Shown: in pieces, positions 34,983 through 61,164 of the stretch | Position numbering within the stretch: position 1 is the first letter of the stretch | How the letters are laid out: every line of letters begins with the position of its first letter | Translations under genes and position numbers: made by a program | The notes under the pieces: generated by a model | The model's input: only the letters and a program-made list of their open reading frames with translations | Databases searched by the model: none | Told to the model about the DNA's origin: nothing | IMG/VR virus record: IMGVR_UViG_3300031857_000018 | Location: 32,001-96,000 of that record | Reading direction: 5' to 3' (one strand) | Source of the DNA: a virus | DNA length: 64,000 nt

Positions 34983-35519
34983 TTACCAATCGACTAATAC
35001 CATGTTTCCGTCCCACATCATAACGTTGTCAGAACGAAAATCTAAATCTAAATCGAATTCTGGAATTTGAAGTTTATCTATATCTGTTTTTAATGTGTTT
35101 AAAAAATTATCAATTATCGGATTAATACTTCCAGCATCAGGTAAAAAATCAAATATTGAAACTTCGCCTCCTTCATCCCGAGCAAATGAAGCAAAGTCTT
35201 GCATAAATAAATCAATTTCTTTTTTTAACCGAGTTGGTAGTTCCGAAGCATTTGCCATTATGTACATGTTTTTACCATCAACATAATATACCGGTATAAA
35301 TGTAGTAAACTCATTGTATCTATCAACGATAATACTTGCTACTTCATATTCATCACGTTCTTTAGTAATCTTAAAAACTTTATCTTCTCTATCAATTTCA
35401 TAAACGCGACCGTTATCACCAGCACCAATTAAACGGAATTGTTTTTGTTGTATTTTGTCTAAACATTTCTGAATATCTGAATTTGATATTTCTTTTAAAA
35501 GTTGTTTTAATCGTATCAT
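34983..35519 (-). CDS. small protein-kinase-like protein
   Basis: IGAGDNGRVY Gly loop, VFKIT Lys, DFRSDNVM catalytic loop, LVDW. Confidence 0.65.
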   Translation of the reverse strand: MIRLKQLLKEISNSDIQKCLDKIQQKQFRLIGAGDNGRVYEIDREDKVFKITKERDEYEVASIIVDRYNEFTTFIPVYYVDGKNMYIMANASELPTRLKKEIDLFMQDFASFARDEGGEVSIFDFLPDAGSINPIIDNFLNTLKTDIDKLQIPEFDLDLDFRSDNVMMWDGNMVLVDW

Positions 35520-52138: not shown

Positions 52139-53167
52139 TCAATCTACCAAAAACAGCTCCGGAGTTTTACAGCATTCGACACCTACCCGGATAAGCGCTT
52201 GCTCTTTAGCCTTTGCCTCAACCACAATATCTAAATCTATAACATTGTAAGTGTTAGGAGTAGCAAGAATAAAGTCAGCGTGTGCCTGTTCTTTGATCTT
52301 GGTAAACTCTTTGTATTGCTTGTGGAAAGTAGGCCAATTGGGCAAGTCAGCCATGTCGATACCATGATGATCAAACATACGCTCAATAAGTACCTGTGCT
52401 TCGCGACGTCGCGATTCTGAGTAATGAGTGCATTGAGTAACACCATGAAGTTGCCAAGTTTCACGCGCCATAAAGAATGCTTCTTCTTCGGACAAGTCAC
52501 CAGTATTGAAAGTATGATGCCAATAGTCAAACGTGATAGGAATAGCAATAGCTTGATGAACCGTCTCATACAAATCACGAACTGAGTACATAGAAGCCTT
52601 GTCGTCATTTTCTACAACAAGACGAGACTTGCAAGAGTCAGACAAACGATCCCAATTCTGTAACCATCTAGCAATAGTAGTGGGCTTGTCGCCATATGTA
52701 GCACCAATATGAATATTGATCTTGTTTTCGAAACTCGGAGCAAAGCCCATAAGGTCAAACATTTCAGAATGTCGTTCTAAACCGATAATAGAATTTTCTA
52801 CAACCACTGGATCGGGACTACCTAAGATATGGAATGGACCAGGATGCGTAGTAACACGATGGCCGTGCGCTCGAGCATAATCACCTGCAGCACGTAAGTG
52901 CATTGCAATCTCATCGATGCCTGGCAAATCTTCTAAACGATAATGATTCCAACGAGGAAATAATTCTGAACCGATACGAAATAGTCGAATACCATTGGCC
53001 TCGTTCCATTGCAGAATCTTGAGAAGATCTTTTGCGTTAGCAAGAGAAATATCAGAAGCAAGTTGTAACCCGCCTAGTCGAAATTTTCTGTCAATCATTG
53101 TGCGACCGGTACGGATACCTTGCTCGCCTAAGTGCATATTATTACATGCATAACCGTGTCTAATCAT
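52139..53167 (-). CDS. uvsE: UV damage endonuclease
   Basis: GYAC, N...GIRLFRI.S, HP, H.G, ENDD, D.HH, H.SE, HAD, EAK.KE. Confidence 0.92.
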   Translation of the reverse strand: MIRHGYACNNMHLGEQGIRTGRTMIDRKFRLGGLQLASDISLANAKDLLKILQWNEANGIRLFRIGSELFPRWNHYRLEDLPGIDEIAMHLRAAGDYARAHGHRVTTHPGPFHILGSPDPVVVENSIIGLERHSEMFDLMGFAPSFENKINIHIGATYGDKPTTIARWLQNWDRLSDSCKSRLVVENDDKASMYSVRDLYETVHQAIAIPITFDYWHHTFNTGDLSEEEAFFMARETWQLHGVTQCTHYSESRRREAQVLIERMFDHHGIDMADLPNWPTFHKQYKEFTKIKEQAHADFILATPNTYNVIDLDIVVEAKAKEQALIRVGVECCKTPELFLVD

Positions 53168-53180
53168 AGCATTTTTTTAT

Positions 53181-53210
53181 AATATAAGAAAAATAATTCA
53201 AATAACCTAA
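53181..53210 (-). promoter_or_regulatory. class-2 promoter TTAGG-N17-CTTATATT upstream of uvsE
   Basis: Bipartite motif. Confidence 0.55.
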
Positions 53211-53234
53211 TATACCTGGTTTTTCAATGTATGT

Positions 53235-53273
53235 ATATTTATATTAAAGAAACCTAAAAGGAACATAATGAAA
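53235..53273 (+). repeat. direct repeat A copy 1 (late motif + RBS + start)
   Basis: 38/39 identical to 54998-55036. Confidence 0.9.
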
Positions 53274-54272
53274 AACACATTAGCAGAAAATCTGCTTCGA
53301 TTTGGGGCAAAAAACTTAGATCAAACAACTATTGATAAACTAGCTAGTTTGTCAGAACAAGCCAAATCGCCTAGTGGTACAGTAACTATTCCATATAAGC
53401 AAACTTATAATTTAGCAGCTGGTAAATTTGATGCATCTAGCTATATCAACGAAATGCTTAAAGGCATAATGGGTGCTATTAATTCTAACCCAGAAGCTAA
53501 AAAAATGTTGGATAATAAATCAATCAAATTGATACGTGCTAGTTTTCAAGGTGGTGCAAGTAATTCATGGGGTGGAAAAGCTACTGGGTTTGACTTCGAA
53601 TTAAATAATACAAAAGCAACGCCAACAGAAACTGTATTATATCAAAAAAATAAAGATCTAGCAGCTCAACGCGCTGAAGCATGTAAAACTGCATTGCTAC
53701 CATTATTAGAAAAATCCGGAATAAAATTAGGAGCATCTCTACCAAATAACACGGTTATTTCTAGCGCAGTGTATAACACCGGTGGTAAACTAGATTTAGC
53801 TGGGCAAGTTATAACGGTTAGATTAACTTTTAGTTATTTATCAGTGACTGATATAATCACAATAACTGATATTAAACCTACATTTATTGCCCATGGGTCA
53901 TACTATACAAAAGATGGGAAATCATCAACAGGTAGAATAATTGACCCGACAAGTTTAAAAACTAGTACTAGTGCATTACCACCACAGTTAAAAGCAATGC
54001 CAAATCGGTTAGCAGCATTTGAAGTAAAATGGAATCCTGGAGTTTTAAAGGATCCACTAAAAATTCCATGGTATCGTTGGTTATTTGTATATGACGAACA
54101 AGGAAAGATTAAACAAATTATAGGCAAAGTTTATGATACAACATTAAATGCAAATTTACGTAGTATATTTAAAGATAATGATAATATCCCAACAAATGAT
54201 CCAACTTTAAAATATATGATGGATTTGGTATCTGCAAATTATTATAATACATACTTCAAACCATTTGTTTAA
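53268..54272 (+). CDS. leader-tagged protein with OmpA-like domain
   Basis: N-terminal LAENLLRFGAKNL; GGAS...N..LA..RA....L pattern. Confidence 0.55.
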   Translation: MKNTLAENLLRFGAKNLDQTTIDKLASLSEQAKSPSGTVTIPYKQTYNLAAGKFDASSYINEMLKGIMGAINSNPEAKKMLDNKSIKLIRASFQGGASNSWGGKATGFDFELNNTKATPTETVLYQKNKDLAAQRAEACKTALLPLLEKSGIKLGASLPNNTVISSAVYNTGGKLDLAGQVITVRLTFSYLSVTDIITITDIKPTFIAHGSYYTKDGKSSTGRIIDPTSLKTSTSALPPQLKAMPNRLAAFEVKWNPGVLKDPLKIPWYRWLFVYDEQGKIKQIIGKVYDTTLNANLRSIFKDNDNIPTNDPTLKYMMDLVSANYYNTYFKPFV

Positions 54273-54290
54273 AAATAATAGTAACAAGTT

Positions 54291-54317
54291 AAAAGACCCC
54301 TTCCGGGGTCTTTTTTT
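54291..54317. terminator. bidirectional terminator
   Basis: AAAAGACCCC-TTCC-GGGGTCTTTTTTT between convergent genes. Confidence 0.9.
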
Positions 54318-54334
54318 ATGTTTATATTTTATGA

Positions 54335-54922
54335 TTAATTTGAGATATATTCTAATAATACAAACCCAACAGCAAAATAAAATATGTCAGAGGTTGATTT
54401 TTTTACGCAACAACTAATCTGACCCGGATGCCCTGAAGCATGCTCGAATTTTGTTTCTATTATTTTTTTATGGCCTGGGGAATCTAACCAAGCTTGTACT
54501 ATAGATGTTGCTAAATCTTCGTATGTCGTAGAATATTCAGACGAAGCTATAGCAATAATTTCACCGGATTGTTTTATAAAGAGATTGAATGGCATTTCAT
54601 TGCCACATTCTCCGTTAGTAGATTTGTATAATTCATTATATAATTTTTCTGTCACTATATTATCATAATGATTAAATGTGGTATGAAATGATTTATCTTG
54701 TTTAGCATTAATACTTGCTGTTACAGAAGAATACGAATCTTTCAAAACTTTAGATGTATACAACTCTTTTAAGCCAATAGTAACGCGATAGTCATTAATT
54801 TCATCAATGATCATACGCTCTAATAACGAGTAATTAAATTTTGAATAATCAATTGGTGTTTCAGCTTGGCTGAATGCGAAACTACTAACAGCAACACTAA
54901 ATACTAGGAATAACTTTTTCAT
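54335..54922 (-). CDS. secreted CAP (SCP) domain protein
   Basis: Signal peptide; INDYR...GL..L, GEII, W..SPGH...I. Confidence 0.8.
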   Translation of the reverse strand: MKKLFLVFSVAVSSFAFSQAETPIDYSKFNYSLLERMIIDEINDYRVTIGLKELYTSKVLKDSYSSVTASINAKQDKSFHTTFNHYDNIVTEKLYNELYKSTNGECGNEMPFNLFIKQSGEIIAIASSEYSTTYEDLATSIVQAWLDSPGHKKIIETKFEHASGHPGQISCCVKKSTSDIFYFAVGFVLLEYISN

Positions 54923-54957
54923 GGGGCTCTCTTTTATATTATAAATATAAGAAGAAA
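54894..54957 (-). repeat. direct repeat B copy 1 (promoter part, RBS and start of CAP gene)
   Basis: 62/64 identical to 57442-57505. Confidence 0.9.
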
Positions 54958-54997
54958 TATTCGGATATCCTAATTTCTTGATATTTTTTTCTGTATA

Positions 54998-55036
54998 ATA
55001 TTTATATTAAAGAAACCTAACAGGAACATAATGAAA
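54998..55036 (+). repeat. direct repeat A copy 2
   Basis: 38/39 identical to 53235-53273. Confidence 0.9.
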
Positions 55037-55339
55037 CATAGTTTACAAGAAAATATGCGTCGTTTTGGCACTAAAAATCTAAAAGAATCAGTCGATACTG
55101 CAGAATTAGATGCTAAATTAGAAGCAATTAATGATGATGATTTAGAAGGGTTTATCGAAGTAATGACTGCAATTGAAAATGCAGGTCCTATCGATGAATG
55201 GCTTAAAAAAGTTGCTAAAGCAATTCGTCGTAAATGGTACCGGATGACAAAACGATACAAATATAAATTGGATCAGCGTCGTTTATTAAATGCATCTCGT
55301 AGATTGTGGGATACAATGAAACATGATATAGGATTATAA
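55031..55339 (+). CDS. small leader-tagged protein
   Basis: N-terminal LQENMRRFGTKNLKE; acidic middle and basic C-terminus. Confidence 0.75.
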   Translation: MKHSLQENMRRFGTKNLKESVDTAELDAKLEAINDDDLEGFIEVMTAIENAGPIDEWLKKVAKAIRRKWYRMTKRYKYKLDQRRLLNASRRLWDTMKHDIGL

Positions 55340-55352
55340 ATTTAGGAAGATA

Positions 55353-56873
55353 ATGAAATTAGAAAAATTATTAGCAGAAAATATGCTTAGGTTTGGTGTT
55401 AAAAATTTAAATAATACCGATGTGCATCAAATCTTAACCATAATGGAACAAGCTGCAGCTGCAGGTACTGAAAGCTCCGCGGTTACATCGATGCCAGCAT
55501 ATAAACCAGTACTAGACTGGTGGAATAAAAAATCAAAAAATAATAGTTCAGCAAAAAAATATCTAGAATATTGGTCTGGCGGTGTTGCTAAAGAATCTAA
55601 AGGTATTAATGTTAATGCAACTAATACATTATTAAAACATTTACAAACTTTAAGTAAAAATAATGTTTATAACTTAGATCAAAATAAATTACAAGAGTTT
55701 ACCGACTATTTACAGACAAGTATTTCTGCTAATATTTATTTTGAACCTAGAAGTTTTGATCAGCGACCAGAAACTCGTGCTATACGCATATTAGCTATGT
55801 TAAAACCAGAATCAGATCCTACTAAAACATCATTAGCTACTAATGAAAAATCTGCTATTAGTGCATTCAATAAGGCAGATTTAAATAAAATTAAAGCATC
55901 TCTAGAGAAAACACAATTTGTTTATACTACAATTACCGAACAAGATAAAATTGCATTACTAAAATATTTTGAAGAAAAAGCTACACAAAAAGCCACAGTT
56001 CATAATAAAGCTAATGCTGATAACCCGTTAGGAAAATTAGTACAATGGAATATGGAAAAGGCTATTAAAGAAGCTTCAAGCATACGAATTGGACCTGGCA
56101 AAGGATCTATCGAACGAGAAGAAGCAGCCGATCCGACGCCACCAGAAATATATACATATACATTTTCATATCCAGATATAACCGCTACTAATCCTAAATT
56201 ACAAAATTTTTTCTTAGGAGATGATAATGTTGCAGTGTCTGCTGAGAATGAAACTGCATTTAAAGAAACATTAGAAACTTTACTAAATTCAATACCTGCA
56301 GATCAAAAAATAATTGAGGTATATATAAAAGCTGGATCGTCAACAAGTAAAGTTCCAACATCATATAAATCTGCTGGAAAATATACAACTGCTGCAAATG
56401 TAACATTAGTTGATGATCGCTTGACAGCAATACAAACATCTTTGTCAAACGTTGTTGATACAACAATACCAAAAGGAGAGTGGAAATTAATTGTCGACAC
56501 ACCAGAACGTAAACCGAATAACGGCCCTGAATGGACTGACGCTGATCGAGCTGCATATCCATTAGCTAAACGACGTAAAACACTAGAAAATGGAACTGCT
56601 AATCCACAATATGATCAAAAAATAGTTGATGCATATGAAGCAAAATATGGTAATTACAAAGGAAGTTACGGTCAAATATCTATTAAAACAACATCGACTA
56701 TAACTATACCAACTACTACCGCGCCGGCTATTAAAGTATCTGGAGAATGGTATGGATCTATATCATGGCCTTCCCCAGGAAGAGGTAATGGTAAACCAAA
56801 AACTATACCTGGAAAAAATAAAGGTGAAAAAACATGGACCGGTCAGGGAACGTTAGATTGTCCAATTTGGTAA
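55353..56873 (+). CDS. leader-tagged protein with divergent OmpA-like domain
   Basis: LAENMLRFGVKNL; FF..D, I.AGSS, N..L...R...I...L. Confidence 0.5.
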   Translation: MKLEKLLAENMLRFGVKNLNNTDVHQILTIMEQAAAAGTESSAVTSMPAYKPVLDWWNKKSKNNSSAKKYLEYWSGGVAKESKGINVNATNTLLKHLQTLSKNNVYNLDQNKLQEFTDYLQTSISANIYFEPRSFDQRPETRAIRILAMLKPESDPTKTSLATNEKSAISAFNKADLNKIKASLEKTQFVYTTITEQDKIALLKYFEEKATQKATVHNKANADNPLGKLVQWNMEKAIKEASSIRIGPGKGSIEREEAADPTPPEIYTYTFSYPDITATNPKLQNFFLGDDNVAVSAENETAFKETLETLLNSIPADQKIIEVYIKAGSSTSKVPTSYKSAGKYTTAANVTLVDDRLTAIQTSLSNVVDTTIPKGEWKLIVDTPERKPNNGPEWTDADRAAYPLAKRRKTLENGTANPQYDQKIVDAYEAKYGNYKGSYGQISIKTTSTITIPTTTAPAIKVSGEWYGSISWPSPGRGNGKPKTIPGKNKGEKTWTGQGTLDCPIW

Positions 56874-56890
56874 ATTTAATATATTAAAAT

Positions 56891-56917
56891 AAAAAGGGGC
56901 TCATAGCCCCTTTTTTT
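56891..56917. terminator. bidirectional terminator
   Basis: AAAAAGGGGCT-CAT-AGCCCCTTTTTTT. Confidence 0.9.
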
Positions 56918-56921
56918 ATGT

Positions 56922-57470
56922 TTAATTACAAACGGTTAAACATGCATATAAATATTCTGAATTATTATTTCTAGAAATAGAAACCGCAATCTTTGTAATA
57001 TCATTGCGAAGAAGAATATTATTATGTGGTTTACTATTTTTCCATAATTCAAATATTGACTGATCGTGTGGAATATTTTTTATAAAATTTGAATATAAAG
57101 ATGAATTAGTAGAACATTCTGCTATAACTTTTACAGAACGATTCATGAAAAATTCAATACGCTGTGTAATACCACTCATTCCTAGAGTTTCATTATAATG
57201 TGTTACTTCATTAATATTAGACATATAAACAGATTGATAATCCGCAGCGAGATATAAAGCAGAATCAAAAACTAGAGCTGATAGTCCGTTTTGAATTCGA
57301 TATTCATTTATTCTCGCAATAACGCTAGATTCATACGCCTTACAATCAAATATAGATGTAGATTTTGTTTTTGCATCTACATGTTGTTGATATGTAATTT
57401 GCGTAACATTATTTTGCGAAAATAATACATTAAATGTAAATACACTAAATACTAGGAATAACTTTTTCAT
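56922..57470 (-). CDS. secreted CAP (SCP) domain protein
   Basis: Signal peptide; INEYR..NGL..L..D..L..AA..QS.YM....H, AEC, WKNS.PH..ILL. Confidence 0.85.
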   Translation of the reverse strand: MKKLFLVFSVFTFNVLFSQNNVTQITYQQHVDAKTKSTSIFDCKAYESSVIARINEYRIQNGLSALVFDSALYLAADYQSVYMSNINEVTHYNETLGMSGITQRIEFFMNRSVKVIAECSTNSSLYSNFIKNIPHDQSIFELWKNSKPHNNILLRNDITKIAVSISRNNNSEYLYACLTVCN

Positions 57471-57505
57471 AAGGCTCTCTTTTATATTATAAATATAAGA
57501 AGAAA
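57442..57505 (-). repeat. direct repeat B copy 2
   Basis: 62/64 identical to 54894-54957. Confidence 0.9.
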
Positions 57506-57517
57506 ACTCCGTAAGTC

Positions 57518-58081
57518 CTAATCTTTTTTAACAAATCCGCTCAAAAAGTTTCTTTGTTTTTCAATGGCATTGTCTAACTCTGTGTTAGTATTTTTTCGTT
57601 TTCTTGTATTACTTGCACCATTTCCTGTAGAGCTAGGTGCAACATCATCTGGTTTGCTAGATCTTGTTTTTCTCGTTGATTTAGTTTTTCCACTATTCTC
57701 GGAAGCATCTCGTCGGCTGCTTTTATCACCATCTCCGCTTTTAGTTTCTGGCCTTGCGGGCTGTGTATAAACTCTTGTATACGTTGTTGGTATAATTCGT
57801 TTGATGCACTCGTCGTTTCCGATGGATCTAGTATCATCATAGAAGATGTATCCTGTGTTATACTGTGTCTTTTGCCCCTGAATCTGGATGCCACACGGGT
57901 ACTTAACTCCTGAAGCCGATTCCACAGTATACTGAATACCCCACGATGTTTGTTTTGTTTTTTTAACATAGCCATATTGTTTGTTTCCAAGCCATACAAA
58001 ATAAACAGCATCTCCTAGTTTAAATTGTGGCTTGTTGAATTTATTCTGAATTGCTTCAGAAACTTGTTGTTTTTTTGCCAT
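57518..58081 (-). CDS. hypothetical protein (SH3/KOW-like N-terminus, basic disordered tail)
   Basis: F..GD.V.....G....G.V pattern. Confidence 0.6.
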   Translation of the reverse strand: MAKKQQVSEAIQNKFNKPQFKLGDAVYFVWLGNKQYGYVKKTKQTSWGIQYTVESASGVKYPCGIQIQGQKTQYNTGYIFYDDTRSIGNDECIKRIIPTTYTRVYTQPARPETKSGDGDKSSRRDASENSGKTKSTRKTRSSKPDDVAPSSTGNGASNTRKRKNTNTELDNAIEKQRNFLSGFVKKD

Positions 58082-60372: not shown

Positions 60373-61164
60373 CTAAAGTTTTTCCATATACTTTTGTAAA
60401 CGTTTTTGTGACTTATGGTATTGAATAGATTGCTGAATTTGCTTTGGAGTTAAATTCATGTTTAATTGTAATACATCTAATATATCTGCAATTAAACGTT
60501 CTTTAGCATAAGTCGTTTTTGCTCGTTTATTTATTATTTTGATAACATTTTCTAGATGTTTAACAAATTCACGTGGTAGATTTTTTATAACACGTGTTTT
60601 GTCTGCCGGTAGTGTTACGTCGGTTTTTGGTTTTTTAGACTCTAGCATCAATTGTTTAGTAATTTTTGCAGATTCACGTAAAATATCACCATATTTAACA
60701 ACCCAAGCAACTTCTGGTGCAGGCGGAGGTGTTGATTCAGCTGCCCCAGCACCGCCACCGGCTGACCCTTTTTCAATTTTTTCTTTATCAGCATCGCCTA
60801 ATCCAGCAACATCCTCTAAGCCCAATTGCAATTCGATGGTATAATCATCATTTTTTCCAAACCCAGTGTATGGTACTAATTTGATGATTTTACTTTTTAA
60901 CAGGCTTAATAGGATTCCAGGCGTGATATTTAAATCTTTACCAGCTCGACCGATGAATTCGCGAATTCCAATGTCTGAAATTGAATAAATAATACCTAAA
61001 TGCGTTGTACCATATGCATCAAATTTTCCTAAAAACTTTTCTTCTGCTGGAGTAAATGGTGAATCCTTAGCATCTGACGGTGCATTGTCAGTTTCTTGCT
61101 CAGGTGCCTCCACGATCATGGATTTTAGTGTAGATTCGACTATATAGTTAAAGCGCTTTGTCAT
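60373..61164 (-). CDS. hypothetical protein (probable head-internal)
   Basis: Several I/L-x-E motifs; Gly/Pro linker. Confidence 0.65.
   Translation of the reverse strand: MTKRFNYIVESTLKSMIVEAPEQETDNAPSDAKDSPFTPAEEKFLGKFDAYGTTHLGIIYSISDIGIREFIGRAGKDLNITPGILLSLLKSKIIKLVPYTGFGKNDDYTIELQLGLEDVAGLGDADKEKIEKGSAGGGAGAAESTPPPAPEVAWVVKYGDILRESAKITKQLMLESKKPKTDVTLPADKTRVIKNLPREFVKHLENVIKIINKRAKTTYAKERLIADILDVLQLNMNLTPKQIQQSIQYHKSQKRLQKYMEKL

Follow-up and report, generated by a model that had tools for sequence, protein, structure and literature searches.

In phage T4, the early periplasmic protein Spackle (gp61.3) inhibits the virion lysozyme gp5 (PMC7677548), and the internal proteins bear conserved leaders that target them to the head and are cut off by gp21 (PMC7411985; PMC3012670); these proteins enter the cell together with the DNA (PMC7411985). 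In temperate phages, the MuF polymorphic toxins comprise variable effectors that are proposed to be delivered by the virion and belong to the polymorphic toxin/immunity framework (PMC5576092). On the side of the cell envelope, AbOmpA binds diaminopimelate via Asp271 and Arg286 (PMC12108004), and the CAP family, whose cavity is lined by a His/Glu tetrad, has a biochemical role that is still open (PMC10189770). Here we describe a locus in which an OmpA-like protein with a leader of the internal-protein kind and an exported CAP protein are encoded face to face. It lies in a 64,000-nucleotide stretch of viral DNA (hereafter the window), corresponding to bases 32001–96000 of one 169,328-bp contig (IMG/VR record IMGVR_UViG_3300031857_000018), and consists of two tandem convergent cassettes: a leader-tagged "cargo" gene, A, faces CAP1, and a small leader-tagged gene, S, followed by a second cargo, B, faces CAP2 (Table 1). 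To our knowledge, no T4 internal-protein gene is faced by a gene for an exported partner, and we know of no lytic phage with a modular effector library packed into its head and with partners to match in the periplasm. In a literature search that covered few subscription journals, no description of an OmpA-like/CAP pairing was found, nor any paper assigning CAP proteins such a partner role.

We interpret each unit as a virion-delivered envelope effector with its cognate periplasmic neutraliser, and put the probability of this reading at roughly 0.55. At the level of sequence, the cargo has a late motif, a leader, a predicted OmpA-like fold and no signal peptide, and the partner has a promoter of another class and a Sec signal peptide; to judge from gene comparisons, cargo–partner pairs are inherited and exchanged as units. 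An antagonistic envelope pair is suggested because the two proteins would be made at opposite times and in opposite compartments, pair one-to-one, and are exchanged together.

Cargo and partner genes are linked. Of the distinct leader-gene junctions in which the facing gene is complete, 46 of 47 have a signal-peptide gene on the opposite side; by the same simple rule for signal peptides, 69 of the 777 open reading frames (ORFs) overall encode one. All A and B homologues with downstream DNA face an exported-protein gene except that of L025/L026, a few being cut at contig ends. A CAP gene is faced by 29 of the 31 OmpA-like cargos vs. 3 of the 23 other cargos, points that are not independent and for which the CAP profiles were partly built from the same pairs. 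OmpA-like cargos found without seeding (L008, L018, L025, and L029) also face genes matching the Pfam CAP family, three of them with weak or borderline matches. In the reverse direction, two CAP1 homologues both face an A homologue, and of the CAP genes in three near-complete genomes, 5/6 lie opposite a leader gene of the OmpA-like kind. Mature CAP1 is 43–46% identical to partners of A homologues in other lineages that use another leader, including a phage of ~290 kb, and 26% identical to CAP2, which is encoded 2.5 kb away. Similarity among cargos follows similarity among partners (Mantel r 0.81, 0/5000 permutations), and the well-supported clades of the cargo and partner trees mostly match, with deep nodes unresolved and L054 discordant on a long branch. 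No charge complementarity between cargo and partner was seen across the pairs (r 0.15). The initial annotation had called for a search for convergent CAP neighbours and for tree congruence; convergent CAP genes do accompany the homologues, particular cargo families occur with particular partner families, and the supported clades are mostly congruent.

Furthermore, the pairs move. The slot between uvdE and the next conserved gene holds 1–3 units of differing content in 20 phages with conserved flanks, and in L045 the flanking HD gene is 98% identical, yet other cassettes occupy the slot. In this the cassettes resemble polymorphic effector/immunity systems, which likewise consist of adjacent cognate pairs exchanged as units at a hotspot. 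The 54 pairs fall into 23 cargo clusters and 20 partner clusters, and the partners include DUF2927 proteins, small proteins without known family, and membrane proteins of 70 amino acids (aa). Because the same slot holds many unrelated cargos with non-CAP partners, the OmpA-like/CAP pair is one class in a general polymorphic cassette system; the initially proposed interpretation is partly supported, and the system is not specific to those proteins. The DUF2927-type partners (L041:6983-7579, L043:3690-4283, and L004:6848-7468) lie opposite an A-like OmpA cargo in two cases and opposite an unrelated cargo in one, and one family of cargos of 160–180 aa faces hydrophobic proteins of 67–77 aa in two phage lineages (L004:8133-8366, L019:3139-3360, and L035:8191-8394). 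The fixed left border of the slot in relatives is formed by uvdE and its class-2 promoter, which stand back to back with the cargo late promoter (window 52139-53243).

The cargos bear a putative signature of head packaging. A, S, and B all start with ENxxRFGxKNL, a leader found on just two further genes elsewhere in the genome; those two (genome 16011-17364, outside the window, minus strand) read ENMRRFGTKNL and have no facing partner. The cleavage specificity of gp21 is L/I-x-E, and the conserved N-terminal leaders of A and B end in such a prohead-protease-type site, as in T4 internal proteins; also as in that system, T4-type head genes are present and a late motif is common to structural genes and cargos. 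Leaders of several different kinds occur among B-family proteins, and LxEQ stands near the N-terminus in 56 of 95 of them, where 2.5 are expected from internal windows. By analogy with T4, we infer that the cargos are packed into the head. A second leader type, MIRLKxLLxE, is carried by several unrelated proteins (window 34983-35519; genome 94545-98577 and 122967-123470) and is also found on B-family proteins of other phages.

The promoters of cargos and partners belong to different classes. The motif ATATTTAT lies 5′ of 35 of the 38 cargo genes of the window-phage lineage and also 5′ of structural genes. Partner promoters have a longer motif, which ends in RTATA in 31/33 and has TWGGW upstream in 33/33; the RTATA ending is in none of the cargo promoters. 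In the genome, 14 genes stand behind the two-element class-2 motif, among them uvdE and many small genes, and none of the 14 is a recognised head or tail gene. Read from these motifs, the cargos would be late and the partners early or middle genes. Timing had been flagged as ambiguous; the ambiguity is smaller than feared, the late and non-structural classes being separate. A sigma-70 scan gave nothing above chance and was left unused.

An OmpA-like fold of A and B is supported by structure prediction. The AlphaFold model of A has a mean confidence (pLDDT) of 88 and matches OmpA-like domains over residues 33–190: the best 18 rows of a fold search are all OmpA-like (top Z 9.0, root-mean-square deviation (rmsd) 3.6, 113 residues aligned), and Foldseek matches to such domains have E values from 2e-4 to 1e-3, ZorB being the top row and one of many OmpA-like rows. 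For the C-terminal half of B (pLDDT 78), RmpM and AbOmpA rank first, with Z 7.7 (rmsd 6.1, 137 aligned) and 7.6 (rmsd 3.6, 116 aligned), respectively, and unrelated folds follow close behind at Z 6.9, so that support is moderate and weaker than for A. The profiles of A and B align across the same motif (E 5e-5), and an N-x-x-L-x-x-x-R motif is kept in both families: R135 is invariant in 20 A sequences, and N349, L352, and R356 are invariant in 96 B-family sequences, the Arg being the equivalent of AbOmpA Arg286 as read from the motif. The name "OmpA-like" therefore holds for the predicted fold and not at the level of Pfam, where neither A nor B matches OmpA (PF00691) at E ≤ 1. No function for A, B, or S emerged from Pfam, PHROGs, or PDB sequence profiles; lysozyme profiles did not match A or B, and neither Pfam nor PHROGs placed a MuF domain in any of A, S, and B. 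ESM Atlas feature searches returned nothing usable for A or for the N-terminal part of B, and RusA-like rows in a viral fold library were weak and reflect a common alpha/beta arrangement. The B family comprises 115 representatives at 50% identity, and none of its full-length proteins has a signal peptide. A Cys is found among the final 12 residues of 79/95 B-family proteins, often in a CPxW/F motif that follows a tail rich in Gly and Lys (window 56860-56873), where a periplasmic disulfide is possible.

The partners of A and B are, as annotated, secreted CAP-domain proteins with signal peptides. CAP2 lies above the Pfam CAP cut-off (PF00188, E 9e-11); CAP1 lies below it (E 0.018) and is matched at 1.8e-11 by a profile of the CAP2-group partners, and members of the CAP1 subfamily carry PF00188. 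This subfamily is discrete, with 30 proteins and a gap from E 1e-40 to 1e-10 in which no match falls. Two His residues and one Glu do not vary in either subfamily; of the CAP tetrad, the His, Glu, and His are recognised in this way, and the second Glu was not identified in these phage proteins.

Under the preferred reading, the cargo would be synthesised late and guided by its leader into the head, where the T4-type prohead protease would trim the leader; at the next infection it would be released and would act on the cell envelope via its OmpA-like domain. The partner would be synthesised early, exported to the periplasm, and would bind or inactivate the matching cargo. A cell expressing the partner would then tolerate or exclude a phage with the same cassette, and a cell held by a phage with a different cassette, or one destroying the incoming genome, would be unprotected. 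Competition between phages would drive cassette diversity. A tentative generalisation, in which we place noticeably less trust, is that the heads of large T4-like Bacteroidota phages deliver a library of envelope effectors, and that the gene for each lies opposite that of an antidote made early and exported. Such a polymorphic effector/immunity system, delivered by the virion, would serve phage–phage competition or the punishment of genome-destroying cells, and CAP proteins would be the antidotes dedicated to OmpA-like effectors. Should the pairs be antagonistic, one could read from sequence which phages exclude or outcompete which others in several lineages of large aquatic phages, and bacterial-type CAP proteins would gain a first concrete function.

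Several observations weigh against an effector and its neutraliser. By motif reading, the strand-end motif is GGAS in A and AGSS in B where AbOmpA has Asp271; Ser thus apparently takes the place of the peptidoglycan-binding Asp, which leaves peptidoglycan binding by the cargos putative. Neither A nor B nor any of ten related cargos showed a recognisable enzymatic or toxic domain. On the partner side, the residues of the CAP cavity do not vary, an unusual feature for an immunity protein that would work purely by steric blocking, and two A-like cargos face DUF2927-type proteins, not CAP. One A homologue (L025/L026) has no facing partner, and a strong toxin should not allow such an orphan cargo unless the neighbouring CAP covers it; conversely, an orphan CAP without cargo gene exists at L071:1435-2007. 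This orphan CAP faces a probable membrane protein of 203 aa near a probable cell-wall-binding protein. Physical linkage by itself, moreover, would also produce congruent trees. T4 internal proteins act in the cytoplasm, and if the cargos follow the T4 route, which normally leads to that compartment, a periplasmic destination needs a different route.

Some of these points suit a cooperative module, in which cargo and exported partner jointly or sequentially hit one host envelope target, for example to block an envelope defence or to mask a receptor, and in which diversity tracks hosts. A toxic domain was not found, an orphan cargo is tolerated, the cargo fold resembles the cell-wall anchors of host machines, including the top Foldseek row ZorB, and T4 internal proteins form a diverse counter-defence set sharing just the targeting sequence (PMC3012670). 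However, ZorB is just one among many OmpA-like rows, and effectors and immunity proteins usually show what is read here, a one-to-one match of cargo family and partner subfamily across lineages together with synthesis at opposite times and in opposite compartments; we regard cooperation as unlikely. With the roles reversed, the exported partner would be the active superinfection-exclusion factor and the virion cargo an antidote that admits phages with the matching cassette. The cargos have no recognised catalytic site, other partners are DUF2927 proteins, which we take to be zincin-like, and the orphan cargo of L025 fits a spare key. The His/Glu/His residues of the CAP cavity, invariant in both subfamilies, also fit an active partner (tetrad: PMC10189770). 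Nevertheless, known exclusion systems such as Spackle shut out kin and do not admit them (PMC7677548), an orphan CAP exists (L071), and the many unrelated partner families, including the 70-aa membrane proteins, better fit tailor-made neutralisers than independent blocking enzymes; we regard this reversal as somewhat less probable again than cooperation. Finally, two independent moron genes might have been joined simply since a shared terminator and conserved ends make a handy recombination unit, and the conserved DNA ends are real, would permit recombinational exchange, and would by linkage alone give congruent trees, but this is very improbable, as CAP is faced by OmpA-like families too distant to cluster (A, B, L008, L018, L029/L030, and L025) and the A–CAP1 pair survived transfer between lineages despite a replaced leader and junction.

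The architecture of the two cassettes is given in Table 1. The initially annotated gene set and coordinates were borne out. Nearly all genes of the window are on the minus strand, and after removal of ORFs overlapping longer ones, the plus-strand ORFs that remain are A, S, and B only, in line with the claim that these are the only credible plus-strand genes there. The repeated ends of the cassettes are real and the coding partners strongly diverged, again as annotated: the left ends are 80% identical over 93 nucleotides across late motif and leader, and the right ends 88% over 86 nucleotides across CAP promoter and signal peptide, while BLASTP aligns A and B in the leader only and CAP1 and CAP2 are 30% identical. 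Of the two terminators described as bidirectional, that between B and CAP2 was called on both strands and that between A and CAP1 on the plus strand only; hairpins resembling them are present in most homologous cassettes.

Table 1. Features of the two convergent cassettes, in window positions.
Feature	Position	Strand	Remarks
Late-type promoter motif ATATTTATA, cassette 1	53235..53243	+	Same motif 5′ of portal, sheath, tube, and other structural genes
Cargo A, 334 aa	53268..54272	+	Leader ~1–30 ending LSE; predicted OmpA-like domain ~33–190; C-terminal domain without assigned fold; 19 homologues
Terminator hairpin with T-run between convergent A and CAP1	54291..54314	.	Called on + only
CAP1, 195 aa	54335..54922	-	Signal peptide, Gln, CAP domain; invariant His80, Glu121, His151; discrete subfamily tied to cargo A
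Class-2 (early/middle-type) promoter of CAP1	54934..54973	-	TTAGGA, spacer, TTCTTATATTTATAATATA
Late-type promoter motif, cassette 2	54998..55006	+	
S, small leader-tagged protein, 102 aa	55031..55339	+	Acidic then basic helical segment; optional passenger 5′ of B
Cargo B, 506 aa	55353..56873	+	Leader ending IME; variable N-terminal region without assigned fold; predicted OmpA-like domain ~263–449; Gly/Lys-rich tail ending CPIW
Bidirectional terminator hairpin with T-run between B and CAP2	56891..56915	.	Called on both strands
CAP2, 182 aa	56922..57470	-	Signal peptide, Gln, CAP domain; invariant His91, Glu118, His149; PF00188 E 9e-11
Class-2 promoter of CAP2	57482..57521	-	

The small protein S has a single homologue, in L058 (4689-4997), likewise directly 5′ of a B gene (phmmer E 2e-44). 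It is strongly conserved there though the B proteins that follow are merely 29% identical, and it ends in a basic, probably amphipathic segment. Identification of S as CheZ or as a holin was rejected, the matches being weak and below the cut-off or marginal. Further along the window, a conserved gene for a 263-aa protein (60373-61164) has forms of 450–560 aa in relatives (P0176; L025:10607-12172; L049:10263-11852); P0176 has a similar starting motif and a B-type domain at its C-terminus.

The source genome is that of a T4-like phage, as judged from its genes, because it encodes a Gp23 capsid protein, a T4-type portal, a terminase, and an S77 prohead protease; profile matches in the window are to Gp23, Portal_T4, and Peptidase_S77. 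The baseplate wedge protein has its best GenBank phage matches in Mel-JY01 (52.7%), an uncultured phage (42.2%), and Flavobacterium phage immuto (41.4%), and immuto is the sole GenBank phage match of the HD gene. Exported partner proteins have Gln directly after the signal peptide, and Gln at this place is a trait of Bacteroidota. Because the relatives of the wedge and HD genes include a Flavobacterium phage and because of this Gln, the host is probably a Bacteroidota bacterium. Mel-JY01 (L066, PP395634.1), the closest wedge match, is labelled a Microcystis phage; other evidence for the group points to a Bacteroidota host, and the label may merit a check. The closest cultured relatives, immuto and Mel-JY01, gave no match to the CAP or B-family profiles. 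GenBank phages and a pattern scan of bacterial genomes yielded no B-family relative, and no cultured phage carrying the cassette was found in the searches made.

Compared with described systems, the cassettes share with the MuF toxins the phage-encoded variable effectors and their proposed virion delivery, but they have no MuF or recognised toxin domain, belong to a T4-like phage, and have an exported partner, whose gene is on the other strand behind a promoter of a different class. Like the OmpA-like peptidoglycan-binding domains of AbOmpA (3td3), RmpM (1r1m), TagL (5m38), MotB, and ZorB, the cargos have the predicted fold and the N-x-x-L-x-x-x-R helix motif; unlike them, they lack a Pfam match, apparently carry Ser for Asp by motif, contain large insertions, and have no signal peptide or membrane anchor. 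The partners resemble bacterial CAP/SCP proteins (PF00188, YkwD-like) in being exported single CAP domains with conserved His, Glu, and His, and differ in forming phage-encoded subfamilies tied one-to-one to cargo families. With T4 IPI–III and Alt (PMC3012670, PMC7411985), the cargos have in common that a conserved N-terminal leader is joined to variable bodies in late proteins and that the phage encodes Gp23, a T4 portal, and an S77 protease, whereas the leader is of another sequence and 20–32 residues long and the bodies are of 300–500 aa with an envelope-type fold. The nearest precedent, by analogy, is T4 Spackle: there too, an early periplasmic phage protein is matched to a virion-borne protein acting on the wall, with a logic of superinfection exclusion that is here inferred from the genes. 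In contrast to gp5, the cargo is of the head-cargo type, with an OmpA-like fold and without a recognised lysozyme domain; in contrast to Spackle, the partner is a CAP protein, and the genes form one convergent mobile unit that is polymorphic and present in multiple copies. The cassette system combines features of the MuF, Spackle/gp5, and classical internal-protein systems and belongs to none of them.

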